32,000 bases of DNA from Chlamydiota bacterium (GTDB taxonomy: Bacteria > Auribacterota > JACPWU01), in NCBI GenBank assembly GCA_016196885.1, contig JACPWU010000021.1, positions 30,001 through 62,000 on the forward strand, in the 5' to 3' direction. Every line of letters starts with the position of its first letter. Position 1 is the first letter of the stretch. Of this stretch, positions 2,438-30,859 are shown piece after piece. A model generated the notes under the pieces. It saw nothing but the letters and a program-made list of their open reading frames with translations. It did not search any database and was not told the DNA's origin. The position numbers and the translations under genes are program-made.

Positions 2438-3220
2438 CTATTTCACGACATTTTGTCGGAGAATATATTCATCCACTTCTCTTCGCGTGAGCTGCCGCGT
2501 TTCTCCTACTTTCAAATCTCCAATTTCCAAATTTCCAATCGCCACTCGCCGAAGTTTCGAAACCTCTGATCCTACCGCTTCCAGCATCTTACGTATTTGG
2601 CGATTTTTCCCTTCCTTCAGAGTCATTTCAAGCCACGTACTGGCCTCATTTGTTTTTAGAATGTGACACTGACAGGGTTGAGTAAAAGCACCTTTATCCA
2701 ATTTAACGCCTGAACGAAGCCTTTTGATTTGATCCTCACTCAATTTTCCCCGAGCCTTGACTTCGTAAGTTTTGGGAATCCCATATTCATGATTCGTCAA
2801 AACTTCCCCTAGCTCTGTGTCGTTTGTGAAAAATAAAAGGCCGGTGGTATTGGCATCCAAGCGCCCCACCGGAAAAACTCGAACGCTTAATTTAGGAAGA
2901 AATTGATAGACCGTTGTTCGGCCTTCAGGATCTTGAGCGGTCGTGATTACATCCAAAGGTTTATTGAGAACGAGGTAAATTTTAACTTGAGACCGGGCAA
3001 TCTTGCCATCCCATTCAATCACATCCTCTTCCACCCACGTTCGATGCTCCGGATCTCTCACCACCCGGTGATTCACCTTCACGCGACCGGCACGAATCCA
3101 CTGACCTGCCTCACTGCGAGAAACAATTCCCAATTTCGAAAGGACCCTGGCCAAGCCGTGTCCACCCCTTCTTTCAGGCGTTCTAGATTTTTCTTTGGAA
3201 TAAAATTTTTTATGCCTCAT
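2438..3220 (-). CDS. RNA pseudouridine synthase, RsuA/RluB family (S4 domain plus catalytic domain)
   Basis: 260-aa ORF with an ATG at 3220. It has an S4-like N-terminus (LARVLSKLGIVSRSEAGQWIRAGRVKVN) and the catalytic motif PVGRLDANTTGLLFFTND. Its start overlaps the 3' end of tsaC by 11 nt, indicating an operon. Confidence 0.85.
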   Translation of the reverse strand: MRHKKFYSKEKSRTPERRGGHGLARVLSKLGIVSRSEAGQWIRAGRVKVNHRVVRDPEHRTWVEEDVIEWDGKIARSQVKIYLVLNKPLDVITTAQDPEGRTTVYQFLPKLSVRVFPVGRLDANTTGLLFFTNDTELGEVLTNHEYGIPKTYEVKARGKLSEDQIKRLRSGVKLDKGAFTQPCQCHILKTNEASTWLEMTLKEGKNRQIRKMLEAVGSEVSKLRRVAIGNLEIGDLKVGETRQLTRREVDEYILRQNVVK

Positions 3221-12427: not shown

Positions 12428-12563
12428 TACATCATCATCAAAAATAGGTAGACACTTCTAGGAAAAATTATGAGATAATTCGAACAAAGAAGGAGTCTCG
12501 ACCCTGAAACGAATTTTCATATTCTTAAGCATTTTTCTTCTTTCAGCCTCTCTGGCCTTGGCC

Positions 12564-13079
12564 ATGCATTGCCCTCGATGTCAGTATGACAATAGGCAGC
12601 GAGCAACCTATTGTGAAAACTGCGGCTATCAACTCCCACAAGTTATTTATTGCTCACAATGCGGCTTTGAAAATCCTTATGGGGCCACTTACTGTTCACG
12701 CTGCCAAGCTCCCTTGGGAGAGGCAGCTCCACCGGCTCCCACAGGGGTAGAGGAAATTTTTGTTCATCATCACCATCACCACGATGAACCCCACTCGGAT
12801 TGGCGGCTCGTGGCCACCCTTTCAGCAAGTGGGGATGATAAGGGAGTTGAGCTTCCAGGAGGGGGATTGATTCATCAGGTCAAATTAAGAGGGGTCAGCG
12901 GTTCTCTGATTATTAATACCGTCACCGTCAGAGAAGGAGGGGAAGCCACTCATTTTCCAATCACCACGAGATTCGCCCCTGGTCAAGAAGTGGTGAAGGA
13001 CTTGGGAAGAGAATACAATTCCACAGGTTTTCGTGTGAGCCGCAAGGGCACGGGATCTGTTGAGTTATATGTTCAATAA
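12564..13079 (+). CDS. Double zinc-ribbon protein with a natural His6 tract and a C-terminal beta-rich domain of unknown function
   Basis: Two CxxC...CxxC ribbons (CPRCQYDNRQRATYCENCG, CSQCGFENPYGATYCSRCQ), then HHHHHH, then ~95 aa of beta-strand-like sequence. The start is uncertain: ATG 12564, TTG 12558, or upstream CTG 12504 (see findings). Confidence 0.6.
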   Translation: MHCPRCQYDNRQRATYCENCGYQLPQVIYCSQCGFENPYGATYCSRCQAPLGEAAPPAPTGVEEIFVHHHHHHDEPHSDWRLVATLSASGDDKGVELPGGGLIHQVKLRGVSGSLIINTVTVREGGEATHFPITTRFAPGQEVVKDLGREYNSTGFRVSRKGTGSVELYVQ

Positions 13080-13218: not shown

Positions 13219-13246
13219 TTGACTTTCTTTAGGAGTGTTGTATATT
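13219..13246 (+). promoter_or_regulatory. Candidate sigma-70-type promoter (TTGACT - 16 nt - TATATT) driving the riboswitch leader
   Basis: The -35 is TTGACT at 13219-13224 and the -10 is TATATT at 13241-13246, with 16-nt spacing. It lies about 35 nt upstream of the aptamer core. Confidence 0.45.
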
Positions 13247-13276
13247 GAGGGGTAGAAGGTGATATAGATATTCTCT

Positions 13277-13370
13277 GATAAGGGCAAACTATCCGTAAGG
13301 ATAGGACGCAAAGCCATGGGCCCCTGGGTAGCTAGGGAGGGGGGTCGCCAGGTTGCCGGAGCATAGGCTG
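13277..13370 (+). promoter_or_regulatory. c-di-GMP-I (GEMM-I)-like riboswitch aptamer
   Basis: 13281-13315 reads AGGGCAAAC-UAUCC-GUAA-GGAUAG-GACGCAAAGCC. These are the two hallmark GEMM-I blocks around a 6-bp hairpin capped by a GNRA tetraloop. A second helix region follows (GCC-AUG 13313-18 / CAU-A-GGC 13362-68; CCUGG 13323-27 / CCAGG 13348-52). The aptamer boundaries are approximate. Confidence 0.75.
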
Positions 13371-13380
13371 AAGAGTCAAG

Positions 13381-13431
13381 AAAAGCGTCTATTCTTTTAC
13401 GGAAGTGAAAGAATAGACGCTTTTCTTTTTT
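13381..13431 (+). terminator. Intrinsic terminator (riboswitch expression platform)
   Basis: A perfect 17-bp stem, AAAAGCGTCTATTCTTT (13381-13397) / AAAGAATAGACGCTTTT (13408-13424), has a 10-nt loop and is followed by CTTTTTT. Confidence 0.8.
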
Positions 13432-13481
13432 ACGTGTTTTAACGTCTTGTGTGTGCATCCGCGTTCAGAATAGGGAGAAGA

Positions 13482-13805
13482 ATGAAAAGGGTCCTGATCT
13501 GCCTATTGGGGATGGGTATGATGATCGAGGCAATGAGTGGAGCGAACGCCCGAGGGGAGGAAGGAAAAAGGGGGAGGGAAATTTTTGTTCGTTTTAAGGC
13601 TGAAGTCTCTCAAGACAGGATACAGGATCTCTTCAAGGAATACCAATTAGAGGTGATTGAGAAATACCCCGCCATTGAGAATCTTTATTTGTGCAAGGTT
13701 CCATTGGATTTGAAAACGCAAGCGGTCATTCGAAAATTAGAAAAGGAGGGCGATGTTGCCTATGTAGAGGCAAATCAGAAAGTGGAAGCACTCGAAGTCC
13801 GATAG
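13482..13805 (+). CDS. Secreted stand-alone peptidase-inhibitor I9 (subtilisin propeptide-like) domain protein
   Basis: The ATG at 13482 lies 6 nt after GGGAG. The signal peptide is MKRVLICLLGMGMMIEAMSGANA. The rest, EIFVRFKAEVSQDRIQDLFKEYQLEVIEKYPAIENLYLCKV...GDVAYVEANQKVEALE, parallels the two propeptides inside the next gene (..LLVRYKPGVS..VLYAEPNYVVEL). Confidence 0.7.
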   Translation: MKRVLICLLGMGMMIEAMSGANARGEEGKRGREIFVRFKAEVSQDRIQDLFKEYQLEVIEKYPAIENLYLCKVPLDLKTQAVIRKLEKEGDVAYVEANQKVEALEVR

Positions 13806-13846
13806 GGTCGAAGTCGTAGAGTCATTACCAGAGAGGCCGGGGTTCT

Positions 13847-16800
13847 ATGATGAAGTCCAACTGGATGAAGAGGGGGATTGTGTCATGCATCTTGGGAGTG
13901 GGGTTGTGGGGAAGCGCCAGTCTCTTTTCATTTTCTGATGAAGAAAAGAAATACGCCCCCGATGAATTGCTCGTCCGCTATAAACCAGGGGTTTCGAGTG
14001 CCCAAATCCGGCAGTTGAGAAAGGCCATCCATGCCGAACGTCTCGAGAAGTTTTCCATCAATGATGTGCAGCATTATAAACTCGAGGCCGGTCAGTCTCT
14101 TCAAGAAGCTCTTTCAGAGTTAAAGGGTTCCTCCAAAGTTCTTTACGCAGAACCCAATTATGTTGTGGAGTTAAATCAAACCCCCAACGATCCCGACTTT
14201 TCCAAACTCTACGGAATGAATAACACCGGCCAGACCGGCGGTACAGCTGACGCCGACATTGATGCCCCCGAGGCTTGGAATACACAGACTGGAAATCAGA
14301 ACCTCGTGATCGCGATTATTGATACGGGCGTGGACTACAACCATCCGGATCTGGCAGCAAATATCTGGACCAATCCCAAGGAAATTGCAGGCAACGGCAT
14401 AGACGATGACGGCAACGGTTACGTGGACGATATTCATGGTTGGGATTTTTATAACAAGGACGCCGATCCCATGGATGATCATTACCATGGCACTCACGTA
14501 GCGGGCACCATTGCAGGAGTGGGCAATAACGGCATCGGTGTGACAGGCGTGGTCTGGAAAGCCAAGATCATGGCACTTAAATTCTTGAGCTCGGGTGGAT
14601 CGGGATACACTTCAGGTGCGATTTCGGCGATCAATTATGCCACTCAAATGGGCGCAAAAATTTCCAATAACAGCTGGGGGGGCGGGGGCTATTCGCAGGC
14701 CTTGAAAGATGCCATCACGGCCAATCAGAATGCAGGGGCTTTGTTTGTAGCCGCTGCAGGAAATAGCGGCGTCAATGCAGACACTTCTCCCATGTATCCC
14801 GCGGCTTATGACGTGGCCAATATTATTTCTGTGGCTGCGACGGACGCTAAAGATCAATTGGCCTCTTTTTCAAATTATGGAAAAACCAGCGTGGATTTAG
14901 GGGCCCCGGGGGTGAGTATTTACAGCACTGCTCCCAACAACACGTATAAAACCTTAAGTGGGACTTCCATGGCAACCCCTCATGTCGCGGGAGCGGTCGC
15001 CTTAATCTGGTCTCAATTTCCGAGCCTGACGAATCTTCAGGTGAAAGATAAATTGCTCGTCTCCACAGATCCGATTTCAGCCCTGTCTGGAAAAACGGTG
15101 AGCGGGGGAAGGCTCAACATCAATAATTTTATGGAGAATGACACGACGGCCCCGGCCCCTGTCACTAATTTAGCCACTTCCAGCGTTTCCTATTTTACCA
15201 CCACACTCACGTGGACAGCGACGGGAGACGATGGTTTCACAGGACAGGCAAGCACCTATGATTTGCGCTATTCTACGAGTGCCATCACAGAGTCTAATTT
15301 TTCCTCGGCCCTTCAGGCGTCCGGGCTCCCCTCACCTAAGACTTCAGGACAGACAGAGACTTTTAAGGTGACAGGACTTTCTTCCAACACGGCTTATTAT
15401 TTTGCACTCAAGGTGAAGGACAACGTGGGAAATACTTCTTCCCTTTCGAATGTGATTTCAGCCACCACCTCTCAGGGAACCACTTTCTACCAGGATAATT
15501 TTGAGAATGGCCAGGGAAGTTGGGTCACAGGAGGAACAAACGGCACGGGTGGAGGGACCTTGTGGCATCTTTCAACCCGTAAATCCAACAGTGCGACCCA
15601 TTCCTTCTATTATGGCAGTGAGTCCAAGGGTAATTACAACACAGGACAAGCCAATTATGGTTGGATCACTTCTCCCAAAATTTATTTAACCTCGGCTACC
15701 AATTCCACTTTGATTTTTAACCACTATCTGACGACGGAGAATCTGGCCCCCTATGATGAAGGAAGTGTCAGAATTTCAACAGACGGCGGATCCACTTTTA
15801 CAACGCTCAACAAATTCTATTCAACCAGCTCAAAATGGCAACAGGTTTCCGTAGATCTTTCGAAATATGATGGGAAAACCGTCTACATTCAATTTTATTT
15901 TACGACGCTGGACGCGCTCTACAACAGTTATGAAGGTTGGTATGTGGACGATGTGCAGGTGATGGCAGATGGGCAAGGTGACACCACACCTCCTGCCGCG
16001 ATCAGTAATTTGGCAATTTCTTCTCTGGGTCAATATTCCCTGACATTGAACTGGACGGCGACAGGAGACGATGGGAATACGGGAACAGCCTCTTTCTACG
16101 ATTTACGCTACTCCACGAGCACCATCACAGATTCCAACTTTTCTTCGGCCGTTCAAGTCTCAGGCCTCTCTTCCCCGAAGGCGGCCGGAAATTCCGAATC
16201 CTTTGAAGTGAAGAATCTTTCCAGTGGAGTCACTTATTATTTTGCGATCAAGGCCACGGACGATCTTTCCAATACCTCCGCTATTTCAAACGGGGTGAAT
16301 GGAAAAACAAAAACGGGACCCAAAATCAGCGTGTCTCCCAGCACCCTTGCGAAAGTCAGTTTGGATGTTGGGAAATCAACCACACAGTCCCTGACGATCC
16401 AAAACACAGGCGATGAAAATTTGACATTTGACATCACAGAAATTCCGACAACCACCGCCAGCAGTGCTGAATCTTCCTCCTCTTTGGAAACGGGATCGAG
16501 CGCGTCAGCTGCCTATGCACCTTCCCAAATTTTGGTGAAATTTAAAGAGGGCCTGTCTGAGGCAGCCATTCATGGACTCGGAGATTCAGTGGACGCAAGA
16601 ACCGTTAAAATTTATTCCGACATTGATGTCCATTTGATTGAAACCGCTTCAGGATTGGATGCCCAGGAAATGGCCAGAATGTACCTGGCGAGCGGCTTGG
16701 TAGAATATGCAGAACCCAATTATGTTGTTCAAGCCTTAAGTACCTTCCCCAACGATTCTTCTTTCTCTCAACTCTACGGCCTTCACAACACAGGACAAAC

Positions 16801-19800
16801 GGGGGGAACCGCAGATGCGGACATTGACGCCCCTGAGGCCTGGGACACTACAAAGGGGGCAAGCTCGGTCGTGGTGGCAGTGATTGACACGGGTGTAGAT
16901 TACACACATCCTGACTTATCAGCCAACATGTGGACAAACTCAGGAGAAATCCCAAACAATGGATTGGACGATGACGGAGATGGTTATGTGGACGACTATC
17001 GAGGATGGGATTTTGTGAACGAAGACAATGATCCTATGGATGACAATAAGCATGGCACACACGTTTCCGGAACCATTGGTGGAGTTGGAAACAACGGTAC
17101 AGGCGTCGCCGGTGTTTGTTGGAACGTCAAAATCATGCCTCTTAAATTCTTAAGTGGGAGTGGGTCTGGATACACCTCGGATGCAGTCGAGGCCGTTCTT
17201 TACGCCAATAAAAAAGGTGCGAATGTGATGAGCAACAGCTGGGGCGGCGGCGGATATTCTCAGGCCCTGTATGACGCTATTAAAGCGGCCGAGGTGAAAG
17301 GCATTCTCTTCGTAGCCGCCGCGGGAAATAGCTCGAGCAACAATGATCAAGTGGCCAATTATCCCTCGAATTACAACATCTCGAACGTCATTGCCGTCGC
17401 AGCCACAGATGCGAACGATGCCCTGGCCTGGTTTTCAAATTATGGAGCGAACACGGTTCATTTGGGCGCCCCGGGGGTCAGCATCTATAGTACCCTGCCG
17501 GGAAACACCTATGGCTCTTTGAGTGGAACTTCCATGGCGACCCCCCATGTAGCTGGGGCTTGTGCCCTCGTGTGGTCCGCGAATCCTTCCTGGAATTATG
17601 CGAAAGTGAAAAATCAGATCATGGTGGGCACAGATAAAATTTCGAGCATGAGTGGTAAAACAGTTTCAGGCGGTCGGCTGAATGTTTACAAAGCCCTTCA
17701 AGCGGCAGAAACCACGCCTCCCTCAGCCGTCACCGATTTGTCCAGCTCCATGGTTTCTTTTTCCACCCTTAAACTTAAATGGACGGCAACGGGGGATGAT
17801 GGCAATACCGGAACAGCCACCTCTTACGAGATTCGTTATTCTACAAGTTCTATCACGAGTTCTAACTTTAGTTCCGCTACGTTGATCAGCAATACCCCCA
17901 CACCCAAATCTGCTGGAGGGGCTGAAGAATTCAACGTCACAGGCCTTTCCCAAAAGACAACTTATTACTTTGCCATGAAAGTGACCGATGATGCCAGCAA
18001 CACCTCTGGCCTTTCGAATGTGACCTCTGCCACCACAGACGAAGCGGTGGTAACCTACTTGGATAGCATGGAAACAGGAGCCGGATGGACGGTGACAGGC
18101 TTGTGGCATCTTTCCACACGAAAATCTAACAGCCCCACGCATTCTTTCTATTATGGAGACGAGACCAAAGGAAATTACGATACAGGTTCTACCACCCAAG
18201 GGACGCTGACATCCTCTACCATCGACCTTTCATCGGGGGTCACGCCTCAACTCTCTTTTCAATATTGGAGAAAAGTGGAGTCGGGAGGGATCTATGACAA
18301 AACCTATTTAGAAATTTCAAAAGACAATGGCTCCAATTGGACCCAGCTTTGGTACAAGAACTCCAGCAACACCTCTGAACAAGCCTGGACCAGTTCTGGA
18401 CCCTTGGATTTAAGCTCTTACAAAGGCGCTAAAGTCCTTTTGAGATTTACCTTTGATTCTGTGGATGCCTACTTGAATTTTTATGAAGGATTCTACGTGG
18501 ATGATGTTCAAATCTTGGATTCAAAAACAGATTTTAACTGGCTCTCCGTGCAACCAGCAACAGGAACCTTAACAGCCAATCAATCTAGCACCGTGACCTT
18601 AACCTACACAGCCGTTTCTAGCGGAACTTACAAAGGAGCCATTCTGATTAAGAGCAATGACCCTGCCAAACCCTCTACCACCCTTTCTCTAGAGTTGACA
18701 GCCACTCAAGACACAACAGCCCCCTCCGCCATCAGCAATTTAAAAGTTGCCTCCATTGCCAGCAGCAACACCTCTCTAACCCTGACATGGACAGCGCCAG
18801 GCGATGACGACAACGTGGGAACGGCCAGCTCTTATGAAATTCGCTACTCTACAAGCCTCATAACAGATGCTAATTTCAGCGCGGCCACTTTGGCTCCAAA
18901 TCCACCCACGCCCCAAGTCGCGGGAAGCACTGAAACCTTCAGCCTGACAGGGCTCGCCCTTTCACAAAATTATTATTATGTTGCGATCAAGACCCAGGAC
19001 GATGTGGGGCAAGTTTCTAGCCTCTCCAATGTGGTCAAGACGAGTGACTTGGATTCCGATGGGGACGGGTTGTGCGACCAAGATGAGTACAGCATGGGCA
19101 CAGATCCTCTCAAGTCAGATACAGATTCCGATGGGTTCAGCGATGGCCAGGAAAAATCGATTGGGACGGATCCTGTGAAGAGCACAGATTTCCCAGCCAC
19201 GATTATTCTGACATGCGACAATGCCTATGAAATTTACATCAATGGTGTCTTCAAAGGGAATGACTCTAATTGGACAAACAAAGAAACATATTATGCAAAG
19301 TTAGGAGACACCATCGCCATTAAAGGCATAGATCTCGGCGGCATTGCAAGTCTCCTTTGCCAAATCAGCCATGGAAATAAAATCATGCCTTCCAATTTTC
19401 TCTGGAAGGCTTCACCTCAAGCCGCCTCGGGCTGGACAAATCCAAACTTTGACGACTCTTCTTGGCCAGGTGCAGTAGAACATTTTGCATACGGACATGG
19501 GCCCTGGGAACAATGGGTGAACGGATTTGACGCCAGCAACAATTGGATCTGGACGAATCGGCCGGAGGAACATGATACTGTCTATTTTCGGCGGAAGGTG
19601 GACTTTTCACAAAATGCCCTCTTACGGGTTACGGCAGATAATGCCTTTGAAGCTTGGCTGGATGGTCAATACCTGGGATCCAGCAATGTGTGGCATCTGC
19701 CCAAATTTTTTATTGGGACTGTCAGTGAAGGCAGCCTCATCGCCCTTCACGGGATAGACCTGGGAGGGATAGGAGGACTGCTTGCCTCTCTTACCTACGT

Positions 19801-20953
19801 GGACTCGAATGGAAAAAGGCAAATGGTAGGAACCAACTCCTCATGGAAAATAAGTACCACATCCTCCTCGGGCTGGCAAAACACAGGCTTTGACGAAAAC
19901 AGCTGGTCCTCAGCGACAGAGTGGGCTGCCTTCGGAAGTGGGGTGTGGGGTTCTTTTGACATGGGTGCCCATTTTTCGAATGCAAGCCAAGCCAAGTGGA
20001 TTTGGGCCTCGGACCCCTATTCTATCGATGACATCTATGCGAGAAAAACGATCCTCACCCCCAACGCAACACTCAGCATGACGGCGGACAACAAGTTCAA
20101 AGTTTATCACAATGGGAACCTCGTTGCCTCCAGCTCCCAATGGTGGTCCCCCGCCGTCGTCGGTCTTAATAATCTCCAAAATGGAGACGTCATTGCTGTG
20201 AGGGCCGATGATGAAGGAGGCATTGCAGCGTTTCTTGCAAAGCTGGACTTTAATGGAACTCAAATCTTCTCAAATACAACATGGAAGGCCTCCACAGGAC
20301 CTTTCTGGGAAGCAGACCTCTCTTGGACGTCAAAAAGCTATGACGACTCGAACTGGACAAGCGCCTTCCCAGTCGGAGGCAACGGAATATCCCCGTGGGG
20401 ATATTTGTCTGACTGTGGGAGTGCGCAATGGATTTGGGCCTCATCAGACACGGACGGTGTCAACACCTCTTTTTTTAGGTGGACGGTGGGAACCAACAAT
20501 ACAGAAGTAGGTGTAACCTCTTTTCTGGTCAGCGCAGACAATGAATACAAGTTCTACAAGAATGGTGTGCTCATCACATCAGGAAGTCGGTGGTATATGC
20601 CGGAGAGCTTCACATGTTTATTATCCCCTGGGGATGTCATTGCGATCGAGGCAAGAGATTATGGTTATAAAGCGGGACTTTTGCTCTACGCCTCCGGGGC
20701 TTATAACCTCGTCTCGGACAGCTCTTGGAAAATGAGTACCACCGAACAGTCGGGAGGATGGGCGAGTAAAACATTTGACGACTCTGGCTGGGCTTCAGCC
20801 AGTGATCACGGGGCCTACGGCATTGCACCTTGGGGAAGCAATGCTTCAGGATTCCCAACCAGTTCTTCAGCTCGTTGGATTTGGGGCCCCAACAATCAGA
20901 CTGGGGCAACAAACATTGATTCCCACGTCTTCTTCAGAAAGAAAATTGCTTAA
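13847..20953 (+). CDS. Giant secreted multidomain protein (2368 aa) with two complete I9-propeptide + S8 subtilase modules, FN3-like, MAM/lectin-like and Ig-like domains, TSP3-like Ca-binding repeats and four C-terminal beta-sandwich repeats
   Basis: Signal peptide at aa 1-30. Triad 1 is D159 (IIDTG, nt 14321), H214 (HGTHVAG, nt 14486) and S374 (GTSMATPHVAG, nt 14966). Triad 2 is D1014 (nt 16886), H1069 (nt 17051) and S1229 (nt 17531). The second I9-like segment is at aa 889-963. DxDxDG repeats are at aa 1733-1780. Four ~145-aa repeats (ADNxFxxYxNG...GDVIA...GGI.GLLA...W.....GW....FDDSxW...WIW...FR) span aa 1785-2368. Confidence 0.85.
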   Translation: MMKSNWMKRGIVSCILGVGLWGSASLFSFSDEEKKYAPDELLVRYKPGVSSAQIRQLRKAIHAERLEKFSINDVQHYKLEAGQSLQEALSELKGSSKVLYAEPNYVVELNQTPNDPDFSKLYGMNNTGQTGGTADADIDAPEAWNTQTGNQNLVIAIIDTGVDYNHPDLAANIWTNPKEIAGNGIDDDGNGYVDDIHGWDFYNKDADPMDDHYHGTHVAGTIAGVGNNGIGVTGVVWKAKIMALKFLSSGGSGYTSGAISAINYATQMGAKISNNSWGGGGYSQALKDAITANQNAGALFVAAAGNSGVNADTSPMYPAAYDVANIISVAATDAKDQLASFSNYGKTSVDLGAPGVSIYSTAPNNTYKTLSGTSMATPHVAGAVALIWSQFPSLTNLQVKDKLLVSTDPISALSGKTVSGGRLNINNFMENDTTAPAPVTNLATSSVSYFTTTLTWTATGDDGFTGQASTYDLRYSTSAITESNFSSALQASGLPSPKTSGQTETFKVTGLSSNTAYYFALKVKDNVGNTSSLSNVISATTSQGTTFYQDNFENGQGSWVTGGTNGTGGGTLWHLSTRKSNSATHSFYYGSESKGNYNTGQANYGWITSPKIYLTSATNSTLIFNHYLTTENLAPYDEGSVRISTDGGSTFTTLNKFYSTSSKWQQVSVDLSKYDGKTVYIQFYFTTLDALYNSYEGWYVDDVQVMADGQGDTTPPAAISNLAISSLGQYSLTLNWTATGDDGNTGTASFYDLRYSTSTITDSNFSSAVQVSGLSSPKAAGNSESFEVKNLSSGVTYYFAIKATDDLSNTSAISNGVNGKTKTGPKISVSPSTLAKVSLDVGKSTTQSLTIQNTGDENLTFDITEIPTTTASSAESSSSLETGSSASAAYAPSQILVKFKEGLSEAAIHGLGDSVDARTVKIYSDIDVHLIETASGLDAQEMARMYLASGLVEYAEPNYVVQALSTFPNDSSFSQLYGLHNTGQTGGTADADIDAPEAWDTTKGASSVVVAVIDTGVDYTHPDLSANMWTNSGEIPNNGLDDDGDGYVDDYRGWDFVNEDNDPMDDNKHGTHVSGTIGGVGNNGTGVAGVCWNVKIMPLKFLSGSGSGYTSDAVEAVLYANKKGANVMSNSWGGGGYSQALYDAIKAAEVKGILFVAAAGNSSSNNDQVANYPSNYNISNVIAVAATDANDALAWFSNYGANTVHLGAPGVSIYSTLPGNTYGSLSGTSMATPHVAGACALVWSANPSWNYAKVKNQIMVGTDKISSMSGKTVSGGRLNVYKALQAAETTPPSAVTDLSSSMVSFSTLKLKWTATGDDGNTGTATSYEIRYSTSSITSSNFSSATLISNTPTPKSAGGAEEFNVTGLSQKTTYYFAMKVTDDASNTSGLSNVTSATTDEAVVTYLDSMETGAGWTVTGLWHLSTRKSNSPTHSFYYGDETKGNYDTGSTTQGTLTSSTIDLSSGVTPQLSFQYWRKVESGGIYDKTYLEISKDNGSNWTQLWYKNSSNTSEQAWTSSGPLDLSSYKGAKVLLRFTFDSVDAYLNFYEGFYVDDVQILDSKTDFNWLSVQPATGTLTANQSSTVTLTYTAVSSGTYKGAILIKSNDPAKPSTTLSLELTATQDTTAPSAISNLKVASIASSNTSLTLTWTAPGDDDNVGTASSYEIRYSTSLITDANFSAATLAPNPPTPQVAGSTETFSLTGLALSQNYYYVAIKTQDDVGQVSSLSNVVKTSDLDSDGDGLCDQDEYSMGTDPLKSDTDSDGFSDGQEKSIGTDPVKSTDFPATIILTCDNAYEIYINGVFKGNDSNWTNKETYYAKLGDTIAIKGIDLGGIASLLCQISHGNKIMPSNFLWKASPQAASGWTNPNFDDSSWPGAVEHFAYGHGPWEQWVNGFDASNNWIWTNRPEEHDTVYFRRKVDFSQNALLRVTADNAFEAWLDGQYLGSSNVWHLPKFFIGTVSEGSLIALHGIDLGGIGGLLASLTYVDSNGKRQMVGTNSSWKISTTSSSGWQNTGFDENSWSSATEWAAFGSGVWGSFDMGAHFSNASQAKWIWASDPYSIDDIYARKTILTPNATLSMTADNKFKVYHNGNLVASSSQWWSPAVVGLNNLQNGDVIAVRADDEGGIAAFLAKLDFNGTQIFSNTTWKASTGPFWEADLSWTSKSYDDSNWTSAFPVGGNGISPWGYLSDCGSAQWIWASSDTDGVNTSFFRWTVGTNNTEVGVTSFLVSADNEYKFYKNGVLITSGSRWYMPESFTCLLSPGDVIAIEARDYGYKAGLLLYASGAYNLVSDSSWKMSTTEQSGGWASKTFDDSGWASASDHGAYGIAPWGSNASGFPTSSSARWIWGPNNQTGATNIDSHVFFRKKIA

Positions 20954-21809: not shown

Positions 21810-22922
21810 TCAAGCCTTCTTGAAATACCCTTGTGCAAACTGAATTCTTCTGTGAATACTCGGATGATCATAAAGAAAAATTTCCACCCAGCGGGGTGGA
21901 TTCATTTCGGAGAGATTTTGCTCGGCCAATTTCTTCATGGCCCGAGTAAAGGCATCTACATTTCGGGTCTGGTCTAAAGCAAATTGGTCCGCCTGCTTTT
22001 CTAATTTCCGAGAATACCCATTTTGAAAAGGCATCAACAAAAGTGAAAAAAGAAAAAGGATTAAAAGAAGGATCGGCAGCCCTGCAACGTCGGCAATTCC
22101 ATTCAGATGAAGGGTTAGAATCAACCGCCCTAAAAATTGAGAAGCACAAAAAAATCCCGAAAGACTTGCAAAAAGTCCCAACGTCATCAGCCGCCAAAGA
22201 TGACGATGGTAATCATGTCCCAATTCATGCGCCAAAACCACTTCAATTTCATCTGGCGAAAAATGTGTAATCAAAGTATCCCCCAAAATAATTCTCTTAG
22301 AACTTCCGAGCCCCGTACACATGGCATTCGCCTTTTTAGTCTTTCGACTCATGTCCATTTGAAAAACGCCCAGCACCTTCACGCCCGCGCGATGGGCCAA
22401 AGCCTTCAGTTTTTCCACCAAAGAAGAATCCTTGAGTGGCTCCACCTTATAAAAAAGCGGCAAAATCAAGGTCGGGGTAATCCGCCCTAAAATCACCGTG
22501 AAAAGAAAATAGAAAAAAGAGGCAAAAAGCCACCATCCATGAGGAAACGCCCTCAACAAAATGTAAATGACCTCAACAGAGATAAGAGAAAAAATCAAAT
22601 TTAAGAAAAAACCCTTCACTCCATCCCACAACCACTGGAGAAAACTCTGTTTAGACAGCTTAAAATAATGCTCCACACGAAACGCAGCATACCCTAAAGG
22701 AAAGGCAATCATCGTCATTAAAATTATAAATACACCCATATATAATGCGTTTTTTACATAAAAATTGGGAAAGTAACTATAAATAATACTTAATAAATTA
22801 AAAGAACATCCACTTATTTGGAAAAAAAGCAAAAATAGAAGAAAAATAAAGAGGTTAGCCATAAAAAATAACCTCTTTATTTTTGCATAACTTTTTGACT
22901 TAGAATGAGTTTCTTTTTCCAT
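21810..22922 (-). CDS. M48-family (Ste24/HtpX-like) integral-membrane zinc metallopeptidase
   Basis: HELGHDYHRH zinc motif, several hydrophobic helices and a C-terminal DHPSIHRRI. The start is uncertain: ATG 22922 has no SD, while ATG 22862 has AGAGG 9 nt upstream. Confidence 0.8.
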   Translation of the reverse strand: MEKETHSKSKSYAKIKRLFFMANLFIFLLFLLFFQISGCSFNLLSIIYSYFPNFYVKNALYMGVFIILMTMIAFPLGYAAFRVEHYFKLSKQSFLQWLWDGVKGFFLNLIFSLISVEVIYILLRAFPHGWWLFASFFYFLFTVILGRITPTLILPLFYKVEPLKDSSLVEKLKALAHRAGVKVLGVFQMDMSRKTKKANAMCTGLGSSKRIILGDTLITHFSPDEIEVVLAHELGHDYHRHLWRLMTLGLFASLSGFFCASQFLGRLILTLHLNGIADVAGLPILLLILFLFSLLLMPFQNGYSRKLEKQADQFALDQTRNVDAFTRAMKKLAEQNLSEMNPPRWVEIFLYDHPSIHRRIQFAQGYFKKA

Positions 22923-22963
22923 AGTGAATTCTTCAATAAAAAAATATACGGTGGGAAATAATT

Positions 22964-23800
22964 TTATGAGGAGACAGCTTCTACAATTCTCTCCAAATCT
23001 TCCACAGAATAATATTCAATCTCGATTTTGCCCTTTTTCTGACCGTGTTTGATATAAACCTTGGTATGAAGTGCCTCTTCTAACTTTTCTTCCATGGCCT
23101 TGAGCTCAGGATTTTTCTTCAAAATCTTTCGATGAAAAGGTTTTTTCTGAACTTGCACCCTCTCTTCAATTTCGCGAACGGAAAGGCCCCTTTTCACAAC
23201 CTCTTGCGCCCATTTGATCTGGTCTTGCGAGTTGGAAAGCCCCAAAATAGCCTTGGCATGCCCAAAGGTTAAATCCCCTTTTTCCATCATTTCTTGAATT
23301 TCTTTGGGGAGACTCAAAAGGCGAAGAAAGTTGGCTACCGTCGCTCTGTTTTTTCCAACCTTCTCTGCTACAGAGTCTTGAGTCAATTCATAATCCCGCA
23401 TCAGCCGCATGTAGGCCCGGGCTTCCTCCATCAGACCTAAATTCTGCCTCTGAATATTCTCAATCAACGCCATTTGCAAAGAGGCTTCATCTGTTGCCTC
23501 TTTCACAAGCGCTGGAATCCGTGTCCAGCCCAAGGCCTTGGCAGCCCTGAGTCGCCTTTCTCCAGCGATTAATTCATATCGGGATTGATGTCTGCGAACC
23601 AAAATAGGTTGAAGAAGCCCGCTTGTTTTCAATGACTCTTTGAGTTCTATCAAAGAAGCCTCATCAAAATCTTTTCGAGGCTGCTGGGGATTGAGATCTA
23701 TCCATTGAATATCCACCGATTCTACTTTCCCATCAGGTCCTGCAATGGGTGTGTTTTGAATTAATGCACCTAACCCCTTGCCTAAAGCTTGCTTAGCCAT
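22964..23800 (-). CDS. parB: Chromosome partitioning protein ParB (Spo0J)
   Basis: ParB box LLQPILVR...YELIAGERRLRAAKALG and the HTH LTQDSVAEKVGKNRATVANFLRLL. GGAGG lies 8 nt upstream of the ATG at 23800. Confidence 0.92.
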   Translation of the reverse strand: MAKQALGKGLGALIQNTPIAGPDGKVESVDIQWIDLNPQQPRKDFDEASLIELKESLKTSGLLQPILVRRHQSRYELIAGERRLRAAKALGWTRIPALVKEATDEASLQMALIENIQRQNLGLMEEARAYMRLMRDYELTQDSVAEKVGKNRATVANFLRLLSLPKEIQEMMEKGDLTFGHAKAILGLSNSQDQIKWAQEVVKRGLSVREIEERVQVQKKPFHRKILKKNPELKAMEEKLEEALHTKVYIKHGQKKGKIEIEYYSVEDLERIVEAVSS

Positions 23801-23906
23801 AGTTATGCCTCCTCGTTATTTTGATTTATCCCCTTCCTCGTCCACACCTGCAAACACTTACCCTGACTCGGTCATGTGGAGAGGGCTCCCCCCTTATTTC
23901 AAGTTT

Positions 23907-24779
23907 TTACAAGATTTTATAGTCCCCGCGGGATAGTTCCCTGTGGAAAAGAGGGCTGGGGGAGTTATGAGTTTTCGTAGTGTCGCCAACCTTTAAGGAT
24001 TCAAAAGATTGAACCCCTAAGTTACGTTCCATAAACTCCTTAGCAAACTGTAAATAGCTTTCAGCTCCTATCGAAGCCTCATCATAATAAAGAATCGGTT
24101 TCCCGAAGCTGGGGGCTTCGCTCAGTCGGACACTGCGAGGAATGACTGTTTTGAATATGAACTCTGGGAAATACTTGCGCACCTCTTCCATCACTTGCCG
24201 CGTTAAATTGGTTCTCAAATCAGCCATGGTGAAAAGAATGCCTGCGACTCCCAAATGCGAATTGATATTGGCCCGGACCAGATCCACCGTTTTTAGAAGC
24301 TGTGTTAATCCCTCCAAGGCATAATACTCGCATTGAATCGGCATGAGAACCCCATCAGCCGCTGAAAGGGCATTGATGGTCAGCACATTTAAAGAAGGCG
24401 GACAATCAATGATAATGCATCCATAATTTTCCTTAGCTTTTGCTAAGAGCTTTCTTAAAATATTATTTCTATCCTCGATTTCTAAAAGCTCAATCTCAGC
24501 TCCCGTTAAATCCGCAACTGAGGGAATCACCTCCATTCCATCCCAAGAAGTGGACACGATTGCTTCGGCTAGAGGCAATTGCTTCACCAAAACACTGTAA
24601 ATACTCTTTTCAATTTTATTTCGATCCAAACCGACGCCACTGGTCGCATTGGCTTGGGGATCCATGTCAATGAGAAGAGTTTTAACTTTTAACCGGGAGA
24701 GAGAAGCAGCCAAATTAACAGCCGTGGTCGTTTTTCCAACGCCCCCTTTTTGGTTGGTAACCGCAATGATTTTACCCAT
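23907..24779 (-). CDS. parA: Chromosome partitioning ATPase ParA (Soj) with a ~38-aa C-terminal extension
   Basis: Deviant Walker A NQKGGVGKTTTAVNLA, IIIDCPPSL and the rest of a ParA core up to about aa 252. The tail (aa 253-290) reads through repeat 23922-23968. Confidence 0.9.
   Translation of the reverse strand: MGKIIAVTNQKGGVGKTTTAVNLAASLSRLKVKTLLIDMDPQANATSGVGLDRNKIEKSIYSVLVKQLPLAEAIVSTSWDGMEVIPSVADLTGAEIELLEIEDRNNILRKLLAKAKENYGCIIIDCPPSLNVLTINALSAADGVLMPIQCEYYALEGLTQLLKTVDLVRANINSHLGVAGILFTMADLRTNLTRQVMEEVRKYFPEFIFKTVIPRSVRLSEAPSFGKPILYYDEASIGAESYLQFAKEFMERNLGVQSFESLKVGDTTKTHNSPSPLFHRELSRGDYKIL
23922..23968 (-). repeat. Degenerate copy of the AACTCCCCCAGCCCCTC repeat, forming the 3' end of the parA ORF
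   Basis: AAGAGGGCTGGGGGAGTTA (23949-23967) matches 6785-6804 apart from one G. The upstream part, TCCCCGCGGGATAGTTCCC, is a shortened version of 6750-6775. Confidence 0.5.
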
Positions 24780-24876
24780 AAGGGAATCTCCAGAGGACAG
24801 AACTCAGAATACAGAATAAATACAACTCCTTAATCATTCTGACTTCTGAGTTCTGTCTTCTGTCTTCCGATCTATT

Positions 24877-24892
24877 AGTTCCACGTGGAACA
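24877..24892. promoter_or_regulatory. parS: parS centromere-like site (AGTTCCACGTGGAACA)
   Basis: It matches 14 of 16 positions of the widely conserved parS consensus TGTTNCACGTGAAACA. It lies about 100 bp upstream of parA. Confidence 0.7.
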
Positions 24893-25012
24893 AAATAATG
24901 ATACATGGCTTATACAAAAGAAAGCAAGATTTTTGATGAGCAAAATTAAGAAATCCGCCTTTTTTATTGTGGGTGACTCTGAAAGGGTCCCTCCAAGTTA
25001 TTCTGGAAATTG

Positions 25013-25460
25013 ATTGTAGTCGCCCCATTTATGGGGCCATGCATGGATTGCCCGATAAATCGGGCGACTACGCTTGACGGATCAAGAATACTTGAGCCAA
25101 GTCCATATGCCAAAATTTATTTCTCCGACAGGCTCCTAGCCCGCATTTCTCATCAGATTTCGTCGCGAGTCCGCCTAAGGTGGATTGGAGGGGAGGTTGC
25201 ACGACTGAGGCCATGCGAGGCATACCTTACAGTATGTTGAGCGTGGCCGACCGAGTCTGCACGGAGGGACGAAGCGGAATCGGAGAAGAGCGGCAGAAAT
25301 CTGACGAGAAACGGCCATGACTTTCAGTCACAAAGGGGGATGAAAATCACCCTTGTAGTCGCCCCATTTATGGGGCTGCCCGATGAATCGGGCGACTACA
25401 AGTAATCATAACTTATTGTATAAAAATAAGTAAAGACTATTTTCAGATGAAACGCGGGCT
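25013..25460 (-). repeat. Second copy of the composite repeat (Y-junction copies 3 and 4, a 148-nt conserved module and a GC-rich structured module)
   Basis: 25313-25460 is the near-identical reverse complement of 2052-2199. The Y copies are at 25014-25070 and 25352-25402. The GC-rich module, 25140-25320, is closed by a 16-bp stem (25146-25161 / 25296-25311). The only ORF (25010..25240) is implausible. Confidence 0.6.
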
Positions 25461-26115
25461 AAAACCCTGCCTGAGATTCTAACTGCTTCTGCCAGGCTAG
25501 GCGAATCATTTCTAATTTTCTCAAAATATCTTGGAAAGAAGACCCTTGGTCTATCATCATAACCAGTTCATCAATATCTTTCGTCGTCAATCCCAGATTG
25601 ACACTTCTCGTCTCTTGTTGGACCCAGGTCACATTTCTGCGAATCAAATCTAAGCTGCCCGGTTTCTCCTCTCTGGAGAAGGACTGGACATAAGAGGCCA
25701 CACATTCTGCACCTTCTAAATGCACTCCCAATATAAAAAGGCTTGAAATCTGTGTGCTTAAACTCGCCCACGTGTTTTGTTCAAACTCAATGCTGCCAAG
25801 CAAACTCTGTCGAATTTCTGGAAAAGTGAGCTGATCTAACTGAGATTGAAGCTGAACCAGAGAATTGGCTGGATTTCCCATTCTTCGAGAAGTATCAATG
25901 CTCCAGGAAAGATTTCGCTTGATTAAATCGAGGGACCCTGGTCTTTCAGCTGTTGAAAAAGCCTCATTCAAAGAAGCGGTGCACTCGGCCCCTCCCAATT
26001 GTATCCCCAAAATAAACACGTCCCTCTTCATTTCATCAGCCAAGGATTTTCCAGGATGAAAAACAGCAAGGGTTAGAACCAAAAATAAAGCCTCAACAAA
26101 GGATTTAAGTTTCAA
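25459..26115 (-). CDS. Secreted protein of unknown function built from two tandem ~90-aa repeats
   Basis: The TTG start at 26115 lies 5 nt after AAAGGAGG. The signal peptide is MKLKSFVEALFLVLTLAVFHPGKSLA. The internal duplication is VFILGIQLGGAECTASLNEAFSTAERPGSLDLIKRNLSW and LFILGVHLEGAECVASYVQSFSREEKPGSLDLIRRNVTW. Confidence 0.6.
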   Translation of the reverse strand: MKLKSFVEALFLVLTLAVFHPGKSLADEMKRDVFILGIQLGGAECTASLNEAFSTAERPGSLDLIKRNLSWSIDTSRRMGNPANSLVQLQSQLDQLTFPEIRQSLLGSIEFEQNTWASLSTQISSLFILGVHLEGAECVASYVQSFSREEKPGSLDLIRRNVTWVQQETRSVNLGLTTKDIDELVMMIDQGSSFQDILRKLEMIRLAWQKQLESQAGF

Positions 26116-26160
26116 GAAAACCTCCTTTCATTAAGAGCAGTGAATAGCACTTAAATGTTT

Positions 26161-26176
26161 TGTTCCACGTGGAACA
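26161..26176. promoter_or_regulatory. parS: parS centromere-like site (TGTTCCACGTGGAACA) at the centre of a 32-nt perfect palindrome
   Basis: It matches 15 of 16 positions of the consensus TGTTNCACGTGAAACA. The palindrome AAATGTTTTGTTCCACGTGGAACAAAACATTT spans 26153-26184. Confidence 0.75.
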
Positions 26177-26186
26177 AAACATTTAA

Positions 26187-27641
26187 TTAACTTCCAAAAA
26201 AATCATCCAGGGTTAAAATGGTATCAAAATAAGCCCCTGTCTTCACTGCTTTTTGAACGCCGTGGGAGGCAATGAGGACTCTGCGAAAACTTTTTTTCTT
26301 GAGTTGGAGATGCGTTTCAAAAAGTTTTATCTTATCCTCAAAAGCATGAACTACTTCCATCCCGACAGGCCTTCTCTGATATTTGATTTCGCAAAGCGTT
26401 ATCACGTGATCATCCCGGTCAAAGACAAGATCCATTTGAAAACCAGGATTCTTGTCTTGAGTCTTCCGGTTAAAAAAGACCCCGTGGCGATATCGGACAG
26501 ATGCAAATCCCAAAAGATCGGCAAGGTCTGTATGATGGCTTCTACAAAACCTCTCGAAGGCCAAACCCAACCATTTTTGATAACTTGAAACATCGAGTCC
26601 CATCCCGGGATTTTCGTCAAAGTCACCCAGGGTAATACGATTCAGTTGGGGTCGGATAAATTTATTGTAGAATTGAATGTAGTAGTCTCTGATACCGTAT
26701 CTGACCAGTAGACTTTTGAAATCAGCGAAATAAGGGGTGTTTCTCTCGATAAAGGTACATCTTTCAAGGTCCTCAAGCACTTTTGTGATCTCGCCGCCAG
26801 AACTGATTCCCAGATGATGGGCAATTTCATCACGGGTTGAAAATTTTTTGCGGGACAAGAAGTCTAGGATTTTTTGATAATGTTTGTTCGAAGATAAACT
26901 GCTCGTAAAAATGCGATCGTATTCTCTTACAAAAAGGCCGGTGGAAGAAAATGCGTTTTGGCAAATTCCTAAAAAGACAGAATCCGCTTCTTTAAGATAT
27001 TTCAAATACTCTGGAATTCCGCCCACCGTCAAATAGGCCTCCATGACTTCTTCATGAGATCGGCTTCCAAGAAATGTTTTAACCTCTTTCACGGAAAGTT
27101 CTTTCAGGTGAAATTCATGCATGGAACGATTGTATAACGCCTTGGAATGCAATACCTTATTAACCAAAAAGGAAGGGGAAGACCCACACAGAATGAGCAA
27201 GAGCTTTGGATGATGTCTAAAATGATTGTCCCAAGCCCACTTCAAATCAGAAATAAATTCATCTTTTTGATCTGCTAGCCACTGAACCTCTTCAAAGTAA
27301 AGGGTCCAGATCCCTTTTCGAAGGGCATCTGCCAGAATTTTGAAAAACTCCATCCAGGTCTCATGTCCGGAAAAAGGGCGTTTCTTTTTTTTAAGGTAAT
27401 AGCCCAATTGGATATAACAACGTTTCAGTTGTTCAGAGCCCTTAAGTCCTTCAACCCCCTCAAATTTCAGGATATTCCGGTCCCGAAAGGTTTGTTCCAA
27501 AAGCTCGGTTTTCCCAACCCGGCGACGGCCGTACATCACGATGATTTGGGCCTTGGGGGAATGGGCAATCTGGAGGAGCTTTTCTTGTTCCTGCCTTCGT
27601 CCAATGAAATTGGAATGAATGGGTATTTGTTTGGATTTCAT
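26187..27641 (-). CDS. AAA+ ATPase (archaeal-ATPase/PF01637-like) with wHTH and a C-terminal DUF234-like PD-(D/E)xK nuclease-fold domain
   Basis: FIGRRQEQEKL...IVMYGRRRVGKTELL (Walker A), a LYFEEVQW Walker B-like motif, a wHTH-like segment KILDFLSRKKFSTRDEIAHHLGISSGGEITKVLEDL, and the C-terminal MDLVFDRDDHVITLCEIKY (D...E-x-K). The ATG is at 27641; the track start at 27653 is a TTG. Confidence 0.75.
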   Translation of the reverse strand: MKSKQIPIHSNFIGRRQEQEKLLQIAHSPKAQIIVMYGRRRVGKTELLEQTFRDRNILKFEGVEGLKGSEQLKRCYIQLGYYLKKKKRPFSGHETWMEFFKILADALRKGIWTLYFEEVQWLADQKDEFISDLKWAWDNHFRHHPKLLLILCGSSPSFLVNKVLHSKALYNRSMHEFHLKELSVKEVKTFLGSRSHEEVMEAYLTVGGIPEYLKYLKEADSVFLGICQNAFSSTGLFVREYDRIFTSSLSSNKHYQKILDFLSRKKFSTRDEIAHHLGISSGGEITKVLEDLERCTFIERNTPYFADFKSLLVRYGIRDYYIQFYNKFIRPQLNRITLGDFDENPGMGLDVSSYQKWLGLAFERFCRSHHTDLADLLGFASVRYRHGVFFNRKTQDKNPGFQMDLVFDRDDHVITLCEIKYQRRPVGMEVVHAFEDKIKLFETHLQLKKKSFRRVLIASHGVQKAVKTGAYFDTILTLDDFFGS

Positions 27642-27740
27642 AAAAATCGCCAATTACTGTTGTAAAATCTCATAATTGGCGATTTTTGTCAATATTTTAT
27701 CCAAATAGTATCATTTTTATAGCTATTTGGATAATGGGTC

Positions 27741-29564: not shown

Positions 29565-29646
29565 GTTTTCACCCACACCCATCATCCGTTTGAGTCTGAA
29601 AAATAGCAAAAAAAAACCGTTTTGAATATGAGGATTTTTTGCTTTT

Positions 29647-30315
29647 TTATTTTGAGGCAATACTAACATCCTTGATTACTTGGGGCAGGTATAAATTCAT
29701 CCAAGAGGTTTGTTTCTGAGAAAGAACCTCTTTTGTCCCAATACCCTTTGTCATTTCAAAACAGCCATTCATTTGAATTAAGAGTTCACGGACCTCTAAG
29801 CTTTCTGAAAGATTCTCCAAGGCCTTTCTAAATTCACTCGGGTAACTCGCATGAAGAAGGCATAGGTCATAAATATCTGTAGGTTCAATTCGATCCACAA
29901 CACAATAGAGTTTCTCCAGGATCATGTCTTTTTCAGATAAAATCGGGCACCGAAGTTCGGGCTCATAAAGCAATGTGACCGGACGCCAAATTTTTCCAAT
30001 ATCGACTTTTGTTTCAAGTTTGGGATATCTGATATACAGTTGACAGAAGTGTTCTCCACGACGCGTAATTCTATATTTAACCTTCTCAAGATTACACTGC
30101 TTCACAAGCTCAAGCATCGCCTTGTAACTAGAGATTTCTTCTTTCGGGGAGAGAATATCTACGTCCTTACTGTTGCGCGCATGTTGTGGAAGTCTTAAGG
30201 TTAGCCACGTTCCTCCCGAGAGGGCATAATTTTTACGGATGAGCGGACATTTTAAAATCCATTTGGCAAGTGATAAAATATCTTGCCTTGAAGGCTCTTC
30301 AGGCATTTTTTTCAT
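29647..30315 (-). CDS. Nucleotidyltransferase-fold protein, AbiEii/DUF1814-like candidate toxin
   Basis: The Pol-beta-type NTase motif is ALSGGTWLTLRLPQHARNSKDVDIL (hGG...DxD), with a later acidic residue (TKVDIG). It overlaps the upstream HTH gene by 17 nt (or 8 nt if the ATG at 30306 is used). Confidence 0.5.
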   Translation of the reverse strand: MKKMPEEPSRQDILSLAKWILKCPLIRKNYALSGGTWLTLRLPQHARNSKDVDILSPKEEISSYKAMLELVKQCNLEKVKYRITRRGEHFCQLYIRYPKLETKVDIGKIWRPVTLLYEPELRCPILSEKDMILEKLYCVVDRIEPTDIYDLCLLHASYPSEFRKALENLSESLEVRELLIQMNGCFEMTKGIGTKEVLSQKQTSWMNLYLPQVIKDVSIASK

Positions 30316-30703
30316 AAAGACCTCGAATCAGACTTTTGCGAAAAATTCTTTCAAGAAGGGTTCTTCCTTTGCGCACATATTTTTCCGCCACAGACCTTTG
30401 AATCATTTTAGGAATGAGTTGTGGGGCACGCCTAAAAAGAATGGGAATCATTTCTTCTTTCGATGGGATTGATTGTTCTCTCCAGAAGATTGAATAGGGA
30501 GCTATTTTTTGAGGTCTTCCAGAGGAATAGTGTCCTTGAATTTTTTTAAAACGATCGAAAGAAGCTAATGGAATAAACCAGGTATGTCCCTTTTTCAAAC
30601 ATTGCTTCAAGCGCTTTTCCCGGCAATATCGAGCCATCAAGGACTTCGTAATTCCTAATCTTGCCGCTGCCTCAGTGGCTGTTAAGAAAACATTCTTCAT
30701 CAT
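30299..30703 (-). CDS. Excisionase/MerR-like HTH (HTH_17-type) DNA-binding protein, candidate antitoxin/regulator
   Basis: LTATEAAARLGITKSLMARYCREKRLKQCLKKGHTWFIPLASFDRF. I place the start at ATGATG (30703), which lies 6 nt downstream of a TATAAT box (30715-30710) with TTCAAA 17 nt further upstream, suggesting a leaderless mRNA. The track start at 30844 is a TTG inside a repeat motif. Confidence 0.5.
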   Translation of the reverse strand: MMKNVFLTATEAAARLGITKSLMARYCREKRLKQCLKKGHTWFIPLASFDRFKKIQGHYSSGRPQKIAPYSIFWREQSIPSKEEMIPILFRRAPQLIPKMIQRSVAEKYVRKGRTLLERIFRKSLIRGLYEKNA

Positions 30704-30859
30704 GATTTTATTATACACTATTTTGAACAATTTTTGAAAAATTTTGGGATGGTAGACTTTGGTCAAATGGACTGGATTTGATTCGGGAATTTTAAAGGTT
30801 AAAGATTTTAAGTATTTTAACCCTTGGACGTTTGAACTTTTCAACCCTTAAACTTTTTT

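Follow-up and report, generated by a model that had tools for sequence, protein, structure and literature searches.

A 32,000-nucleotide stretch of DNA from a bacterium deposited as Chlamydiota (assembly GCA_016196885.1, contig JACPWU010000021.1, positions 30,001 to 62,000; hereafter the window) was analysed with respect to a leader element upstream of two genes for secreted proteins. The element is probably a canonical class I cyclic di-GMP (c-di-GMP) riboswitch, which would switch off transcription of an operon of two genes, encoding a small prodomain-like protein and a giant secreted double subtilase, at high c-di-GMP. Positions are those of the window, and the features of the leader and of the operon lie on its forward strand.

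The element is a full-length cyclic-dinucleotide aptamer of the GEMM-I type (13273-13361), as determined by Rfam, covariation and folding. The first GEMM-I signature block, AGGGCAAAC, occupies 13281-13289, and the hairpin CUAUCC-GUAA-GGAUAG (13289-13304) and the second signature block, GACGCAAAGCC (13305-13315), follow it. Rfam cmscan returned a single match in the whole window (13274-13361, forward strand, clan CL00126), for which RF03167 was the top model with 67.4 bits (gathering score 59), an E-value of 4.6e-14 and an alignment covering positions 1-80 of the 80 in the model. A second family of the clan also scored at or above its own gathering score and was masked by the better-scoring member. 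This masked match is probably RF01051 (gathering threshold 35 bits), whose exact score is hidden by the clan competition and lies below 67.4 bits for the full site and below 51.8 bits for 13279-13356, where helix P1 had been removed. RF03167 remained the top model after the threshold was relaxed and after P1 was trimmed. The original prediction, made by eye from the sequence blocks, is thus confirmed for the aptamer and for the GEMM-I clan, and is corrected as to RF01051 being the best model, since RF03167 scores highest.

For the covariation analysis, a custom covariance model was built from an alignment of 27 aptamers consisting of the window, its relatives and metagenomic examples, and the window site scored 84.8 bits as one of the training sequences. 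Across the 27 aptamers, 90.1% of the cells in the P1/P2/P3 structure were standard pairs, and changes on both sides were found in 15 of the 22 pairs; in the controls, none of 500 shuffles matched the observed values and slid 3' partners paired at 26-45%. In the window, each of the 23 consensus pairs (P1, G21-C46, C22-G45, P2 and P3, in the numbering of the Vibrio cholerae aptamer Vc2) is a standard pair, and at all transcript lengths tried the enforced consensus fold came within 2.5-5.8 kcal/mol of the minimum free energy. P1 is formed by 13273-77 with 13357-61, the pairs G21-C46 and C22-G45 by 13284-85 with 13308-09, P2 by 13289-94 with 13299-304 under a GUAA tetraloop cap (13295-98), and P3 by 13312-22 with 13343-54 plus an extra G+C-rich distal hairpin.

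Among the loci compared, the link between aptamer and protease genes is conserved in a clade of related subtilases. A search of species-representative genomes with the N-terminal 430 aa of the subtilase returned 80 loci from many phyla. The closest one (L004, 72% identity) was the only one with a GEMM-I aptamer and has the order aptamer, terminator, 101-aa prodomain-like open reading frame (ORF) and subtilase. No GEMM-I was detected by the custom model in the 79 more distant loci (L005-L083) or by Rfam in the first 19 of these (L005-L023), and simple core-pattern scans of the 80 loci gave, beyond the known sites, off-target or wrong-strand matches only. The closest full-length relatives were giant tandem or triple subtilases with 50-66% identity, and GEMM-I was found directly upstream in L205 (a 'Chlamydiota' metagenome-assembled genome (MAG), GCA_030699095.1), L206, L207, L209 (a syntenic sister MAG) and L211, with L210 lacking it. 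The aptamer accordingly precedes the subtilase or its prodomain gene in seven of the eight loci of the protease clade (the window, L004, L205, L206, L207, L209 and L211; not L210). L205 and L209 were outside the training of the custom model and were still detected, with 41 and 70.2 bits, respectively. No subtilase or prodomain gene was found beside 120 metagenomic GUAA-loop GEMM-I aptamers. The link was thus recovered only in the searches that started from the protein, and the protease clade would represent one small part of the targets of the class.

Several of these aptamers have features of their own. The L205 aptamer (100-249; 41 bits) is interrupted within the P2/junction core by about 60 extra nucleotides, which seem to form two hairpins. 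The L209 aptamer (2971-3146) has about 90 extra nucleotides in distal P3, owing to which the alignment to Rfam RF01051 picks a wrong short P3 (47.8 bits), while the custom model spans the insertion (70.2 bits). At a further locus, L171, two GEMM-I aptamers (1-66 and 900-982) lie 900 nt apart with the P2 and terminator design of the window, each upstream of a gene for a small, acidic secreted protein rich in Pro, Asp and Glu (178 and 165 aa, respectively).

The leader has the layout of a transcriptional riboswitch. The sigma-70-type promoter proposed earlier (TTGACT at 13219-24, a 16-nt spacer and TATATT at 13241-46) was recovered at 13219-13246 by a consensus scan, about 20 nt upstream of P1. 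With 10 of 12 consensus matches, and 2 promoter-like sites in the region versus 1.4 expected by chance, the match by itself only weakly suggests a promoter; comparable -35/-10 pairs at a similar distance upstream of P1 were seen by eye in L209, L205 and L004. Transcription would start near 13253. An intrinsic terminator (13379-13431) was located by hairpin scan and folding, with the hairpin at 13379-13426 and the U-run at 13427-13431, as had been proposed; its stem is 20-23 bp (about -32 kcal/mol) and not the 17 bp of the original prediction. It starts 17 nt downstream of P1, overlaps no aptamer helix and, again as proposed, ends about 50 nt before the ATG at 13482. A hairpin with a U-run between aptamer and start codon was found in six of the seven orthologous leaders, which makes attenuation a conserved mode. 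Since the aptamer, with a promoter and a terminator of its own, precedes the prodomain-like gene and the tandem subtilase gene in their leader, transcription attenuation, the mode first suggested, appears to be the natural reading; a terminator lies before the start codon, and an alternative pairing that would exclude the aptamer bases from their own helices is predicted. On the same strand upstream, a gene for a 173-aa double zinc-ribbon protein was found at 12558-13079. As no terminator was detected from this gene to the promoter of the riboswitch, part of its transcription may continue into the leader.

From the folding models, the most likely polarity is ligand-OFF, by way of a pairing between aptamer and terminator. 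The aptamer strand CCGUAAGGAUAGGACGC (13293-13309) begins with the last two bases of the P2 5' strand and runs on through the tetraloop, the 3' strand of P2 and the GACGC of the junction, and the terminator strand GCGUCUAUUCUUUUACGG (13385-13402) consists of the terminator 5' arm and the loop-proximal ACGG; both were assigned by duplex energy and minimum-energy folding. The duplex energy was -17.9 kcal/mol versus a mean of -7.7 kcal/mol for shuffled arms (z -4.2), and similar energies were obtained for L209, L004 and L171. In transcripts ending at 13403-13410, before the 3' arm is made, the minimum-energy fold contains the antiterminator pairing with P2 lost and is favoured over the aptamer fold without ligand by 4-6 kcal/mol, a difference that could be made up by binding of the ligand at nanomolar affinity.

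The two antiterminator strands change together in L004, L171 and L205. The terminator 5' arm and loop of L209 are identical to those of the window and its 3' arm differs. In L004 and L171, the aptamer GACGC is replaced by GGCGC and the arm GCGUC by GCGCC or GCGUGCC, by which an A-U pair at the junction becomes G-C; in L205, the tetraloop GUAA is replaced by GGAA and the terminator loop ACGG by UCGG, by which a U-A pair becomes G.U. The CGG of the terminator loop is conserved, though the terminator itself does not need it. For 30 terminator-bearing GEMM-I leaders, complementarity was higher in matched than in mismatched aptamer/arm pairs (permutation p about 0.01), and the antiterminator design recurs in GEMM-I leaders, in a subset only. 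The ligand-OFF polarity raised in the original prediction is therefore kept as most likely, through a different and conserved antiterminator, and the mechanism first proposed for it is replaced.

A ligand-ON switch, in which binding of c-di-GMP would prevent termination and induce the protease, is unlikely to apply here. Class I switches can be of the ON type, such as Bc2 of Bacillus thuringiensis (PMC6366702), and the polarity in the window is deduced from folding only; but the terminator (13379-13426) shares no bases with any aptamer helix, so the folded aptamer cannot sequester it, and when the aptamer fold was enforced, the full terminator formed all the same. Moreover, the sole conserved competitor of the terminator 5' arm is the very strand that the ligand-bound aptamer itself requires.

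The OFF switch would operate as follows. From the start near 13253, the nascent aptamer would bind c-di-GMP, by which P2, the pairs G21-C46 and C22-G45 and the A47 stack would be locked; the hairpin at 13379-13426 would then form, the polymerase would stop at the U-run (about 13427-13431) and the protease operon would stay off. Without ligand, the GACGC of the junction would be free as a toehold for 13385-13402 to pair with 13293-13309, and P2 would be opened. The antiterminator would thereby cover the loop-proximal nucleation site of the terminator during synthesis of the 3' arm, and read-through into 13482-20953 would result. Low c-di-GMP, as in a motile or dispersing state, would permit extracellular proteolysis and high c-di-GMP would repress it.

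Several observations weigh against this OFF switch or against its assignment to canonical class I. From transcript end 13415 onward, the terminator (about -32 kcal/mol) dominates the minimum-energy fold, so antitermination would depend on kinetics, and the antiterminator would have to invade P2, a stable local hairpin capped by a GNRA loop. In L205, the two antiterminator strands are only weakly complementary (z -1.7), and L206 and L211 appear, by eye, to use other strands. Among the Rfam models, that of the variant family RF03167 fits the window best, and the own score of RF01051 is masked. P2 carries the GUAA tetraloop (13295-98), and the 11-nt receptor of the RF01051 consensus (CUAA...UAUG) is absent from the window; GYRA loops are thought to dock in other helical receptors. 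Finally, no GGDEF, EAL or HD-GYP gene was seen in the approximately 49 kb of the contig inspected.

As for the ligand, the canonical contact bases G20, A47 and C92 (Vc2 numbering) are all present, at 13283 (by alignment to the custom model and the Rfam consensus), at 13310 (within GGACGCAAAGCC) and at 13356 (by alignment to the custom model), respectively. A47 has a stacking role in the Vc2 structures. G20 recognises one guanine of c-di-GMP by its Hoogsteen face and C92 is the Watson-Crick partner of the second, and a change of G20 to A marks the GEMM-Ib RNAs that sense cyclic GMP-AMP (cGAMP) (PMC6140456). Since the three bases are canonical, the predicted ligand is c-di-GMP and not cGAMP, which narrows a choice that the original prediction had held to be beyond decision by eye.

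That the switch answers 3',3'-cGAMP in the manner of GEMM-Ib, or both dinucleotides, is very doubtful for the window. The orthologous leaders do vary at the ligand-specifying positions: A, the GEMM-Ib signature for cGAMP, stands at position 20 in L207 (2850-2930) and L211 (2299-2384), and L206 (2799-2892) has U at position 92 together with a compensated U22-A45 pair. The window, which shares fold and clan with GEMM-Ib RNAs (Geobacter Gs1761 type), has G at 13283 instead of their A20, and C92; in Vc2, this G20 discriminates against cGAMP, the wild-type aptamer having picomolar affinity for c-di-GMP and binding cGAMP only at about 10 uM (PMC6140456). The orthologous protease regulon may nevertheless answer different cyclic dinucleotides in different lineages. 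A wider proposal, of a cyclic-dinucleotide riboswitch regulon of giant tandem subtilases in a deep lineage of the Planctomycetes-Verrucomicrobia-Chlamydiae group, labelled Chlamydiae or Chlamydiota, that would have been rewired between c-di-GMP and 3',3'-cGAMP, is put forward tentatively and as rather unlikely.

Little credence can be given to the aptamer being the RF03167 variant ('c-di-GMP-I-GGC') and sensing something other than c-di-GMP. RF03167 is the top model for the window (67.4 bits against the gathering score of 59), also with P1 cut off, and for the leader of L004 (61.3 bits), and the window and RF03167 share the lack of the 11-nt receptor and the P3 consensus GCcAcGG...CCggGcUGCc. 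The core consensus of the two families differs at one place only, position 47, where RF03167 reads GGACGCGAAgCc (G) and RF01051 reads GGACGCAAAgCc (A); the G conserved in RF03167 is replaced in the window by A (13310). The 'GGC' of the family name we take to be positions 20, 47 and 92. The metagenome pattern by which the loci L084-L203 were retrieved required CGCAAAG and hence A47 in every aptamer, and in a sample of these A47 aptamers 20 of the 23 Rfam matches were labelled RF03167, from which it follows that the label tracks overall similarity; the metagenomic GUAA-loop aptamers likewise lack the CUAA/UAUG receptor of the RF01051 consensus. The other orthologous leaders fit RF01051 best, with 41-67 bits. 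The RF03167 label is an effect of score competition, given by overall resemblance such as the missing 11-nt receptor and not by the variant-defining base. Judged by its bases, the window RNA belongs to the known family of class I c-di-GMP riboswitches and is neither a GGC variant nor a GEMM-Ib RNA. Rfam clan competition places many canonical A47 aptamers in the orphan-variant family RF03167, and automated annotation would mislabel them.

It is scarcely credible that the aptamer is an inactive relic, with a hairpin that attenuates constitutively or that terminates a short leader RNA. Some class I riboswitches of Clostridioides difficile are non-functional (PMC6366702), and no diguanylate cyclase gene was seen in the sequence examined; against a relic, no core position or helix is disrupted, compensatory changes have preserved the aptamer in seven of the eight orthologous loci, whose proteins are just 50-72% identical, and the antiterminator complementarity is conserved together with it. 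The antiterminator of the original prediction, UAUUCU (13269-74) with AGAAUA (13410-15) of the terminator 3' arm, can be dismissed: both motifs are present and complementary over six bases, but the best duplex of leader and 3' arm (-7.8 kcal/mol versus -5.0 +/- 2.0 for shuffled leaders, with 11% of the shuffles equalling it) is near chance, no comparable pairing occurs in L209, L004, L171 or L205, and the pairing must compete with the adjacent, perfectly complementary 5' arm already made. A further 5'-leader pairing, of 13253-13268 with 13389-13400, appeared in one minimum-energy fold and was ruled out by the lack of conservation of the leader in L004 and L209.

In comparison with known systems, the window aptamer has in common with Vc2 (V. 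cholerae, RF01051) the three-helix fold, the blocks GGCAAAC and GGACGCAAAGCC, the GNRA tetraloop on P2 and the bases G20, A47 and C92 (PMC6140456). Common to both is also the position in a 5' leader before a gene for a secreted, environment-facing protein. It differs from the Vc2 type in the tetraloop (GUAA versus GAAA), in the lack of the 11-nt receptor, in the extra G+C-rich distal hairpin of P3 and in a strong intrinsic terminator as the expression platform. The zmpI mRNA of C. difficile, which encodes the protease PPEP-1, carries a class I riboswitch, and c-di-GMP represses the gene; in this species, those class I switches that function terminate transcription at high c-di-GMP (PMC6366702). 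Both leaders thus place a class I aptamer before the gene of a secreted protease, and the regulation of zmpI matches the OFF logic proposed here. The zmpI product is a zinc metalloprotease from a different phylum and its regulation has been tested, whereas the window encodes a 2368-aa tandem S8 serine protease behind a separate prodomain-like gene and its switch is predicted from sequence. The switch would extend the c-di-GMP riboswitch regulon by a well-supported class of targets, the giant secreted tandem S8 proteases whose prodomain-like partner is encoded separately, and suggests repression of proteolysis at high c-di-GMP in parallel to ZmpI in C. difficile. The conserved antiterminator provides a concrete, mutable model.

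The first gene of the operon (13482-13805) encodes a protein of 107 aa that has a hydrophobic, signal-like N-terminus together with a Fervidolysin_NPro-like, subtilase-prodomain-like domain (PF22148, Pfam E 3.5e-8). Its start is most plausibly the ATG at 13482, with the ribosome-binding site GGGAG at 13473-77. A counterpart at the same position was found in L004, L205 and L209, and the search for homologues of the 107-aa protein returned only the protein itself. The second gene (13847-20953) encodes, as judged from Pfam and motifs, a 2368-aa secreted tandem subtilase with a signal-like N-terminus. Its layout is two copies of a prodomain, S8, fn3 and MAM-like unit, then TSP3 repeats and a repetitive C-terminal region of about 570 aa, and both Peptidase_S8 domains keep the D/H/S residues (159/214/374 and 1014/1069/1229, respectively). 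Residues 1790-2368 or so (19200-20950) comprise about five degenerate repeats of about 110 aa with the motifs W..S..W and DDS.W; these repeats have no Pfam match and therefore possibly represent a novel binding module.

The public annotation has the subtilase begin at window position 16670, giving a product of 1427 aa, although the ORF runs without interruption over 2368 aa from 13847; the DNA was identical to the public record across the compared part of the gene (13847-16805). The sister MAG L209 (3566-6000) has a similar truncated call of 1570 aa, with 830 more in-frame codons upstream. By such truncated calls, the first prodomain-S8 unit goes unannotated.

With respect to the organism, the MnmG protein encoded in the window was 74-81% identical to a small clade including the L004 genome and the sister MAG, and the next matches were a 'Chlamydiota' MAG (64%) and then Omnitrophota and Planctomycetota MAGs (about 62%). 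On account of this grouping, the Chlamydiae label is probably best taken as the submitters' own. To our knowledge, Chlamydiota is not a phylum known for c-di-GMP riboswitches. A limited collection of literature yielded nothing that links c-di-GMP riboswitches to subtilisins and nothing on diguanylate cyclases in Chlamydiae MAGs, which is weak evidence of absence, and none of the papers that name Chlamydiae, c-di-GMP and riboswitches together appeared, by title and abstract, to address the link. The riboswitch points to c-di-GMP signalling in uncultivated groundwater bacteria labelled Chlamydiae by the submitters. Two ATPases of the type II secretion or type IV pilus type with an MshEN domain are encoded 8-10 kb beyond the right end of the window. 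MshEN is a family of c-di-GMP receptors, and these ATPases give a hint, and only a hint, that the organism uses c-di-GMP.

Other features were noted around the locus. Three T2SSE-family ATPase genes, among them those of the two MshEN ATPases, and a T2SSF gene were found in L213 (1-2895), about 7-10 kb past window position 32000. A housekeeping block that looks origin-proximal (rpmH-rnpA-yidD-yidC, mnmE, mnmG and parA-parB) extends over 21810-31927 and L213, and mnmE and mnmG are separated by the insertion of an AbiEii/HTH toxin-antitoxin pair (29647-30844). Position 12194 of the window is C versus A in the NCBI record GCA_016178005.1 (JACOUD010000001.1), within the loop of the hairpin GCCCCAT(C/A)AATGGGGC, and the other 6323 compared bases were identical.

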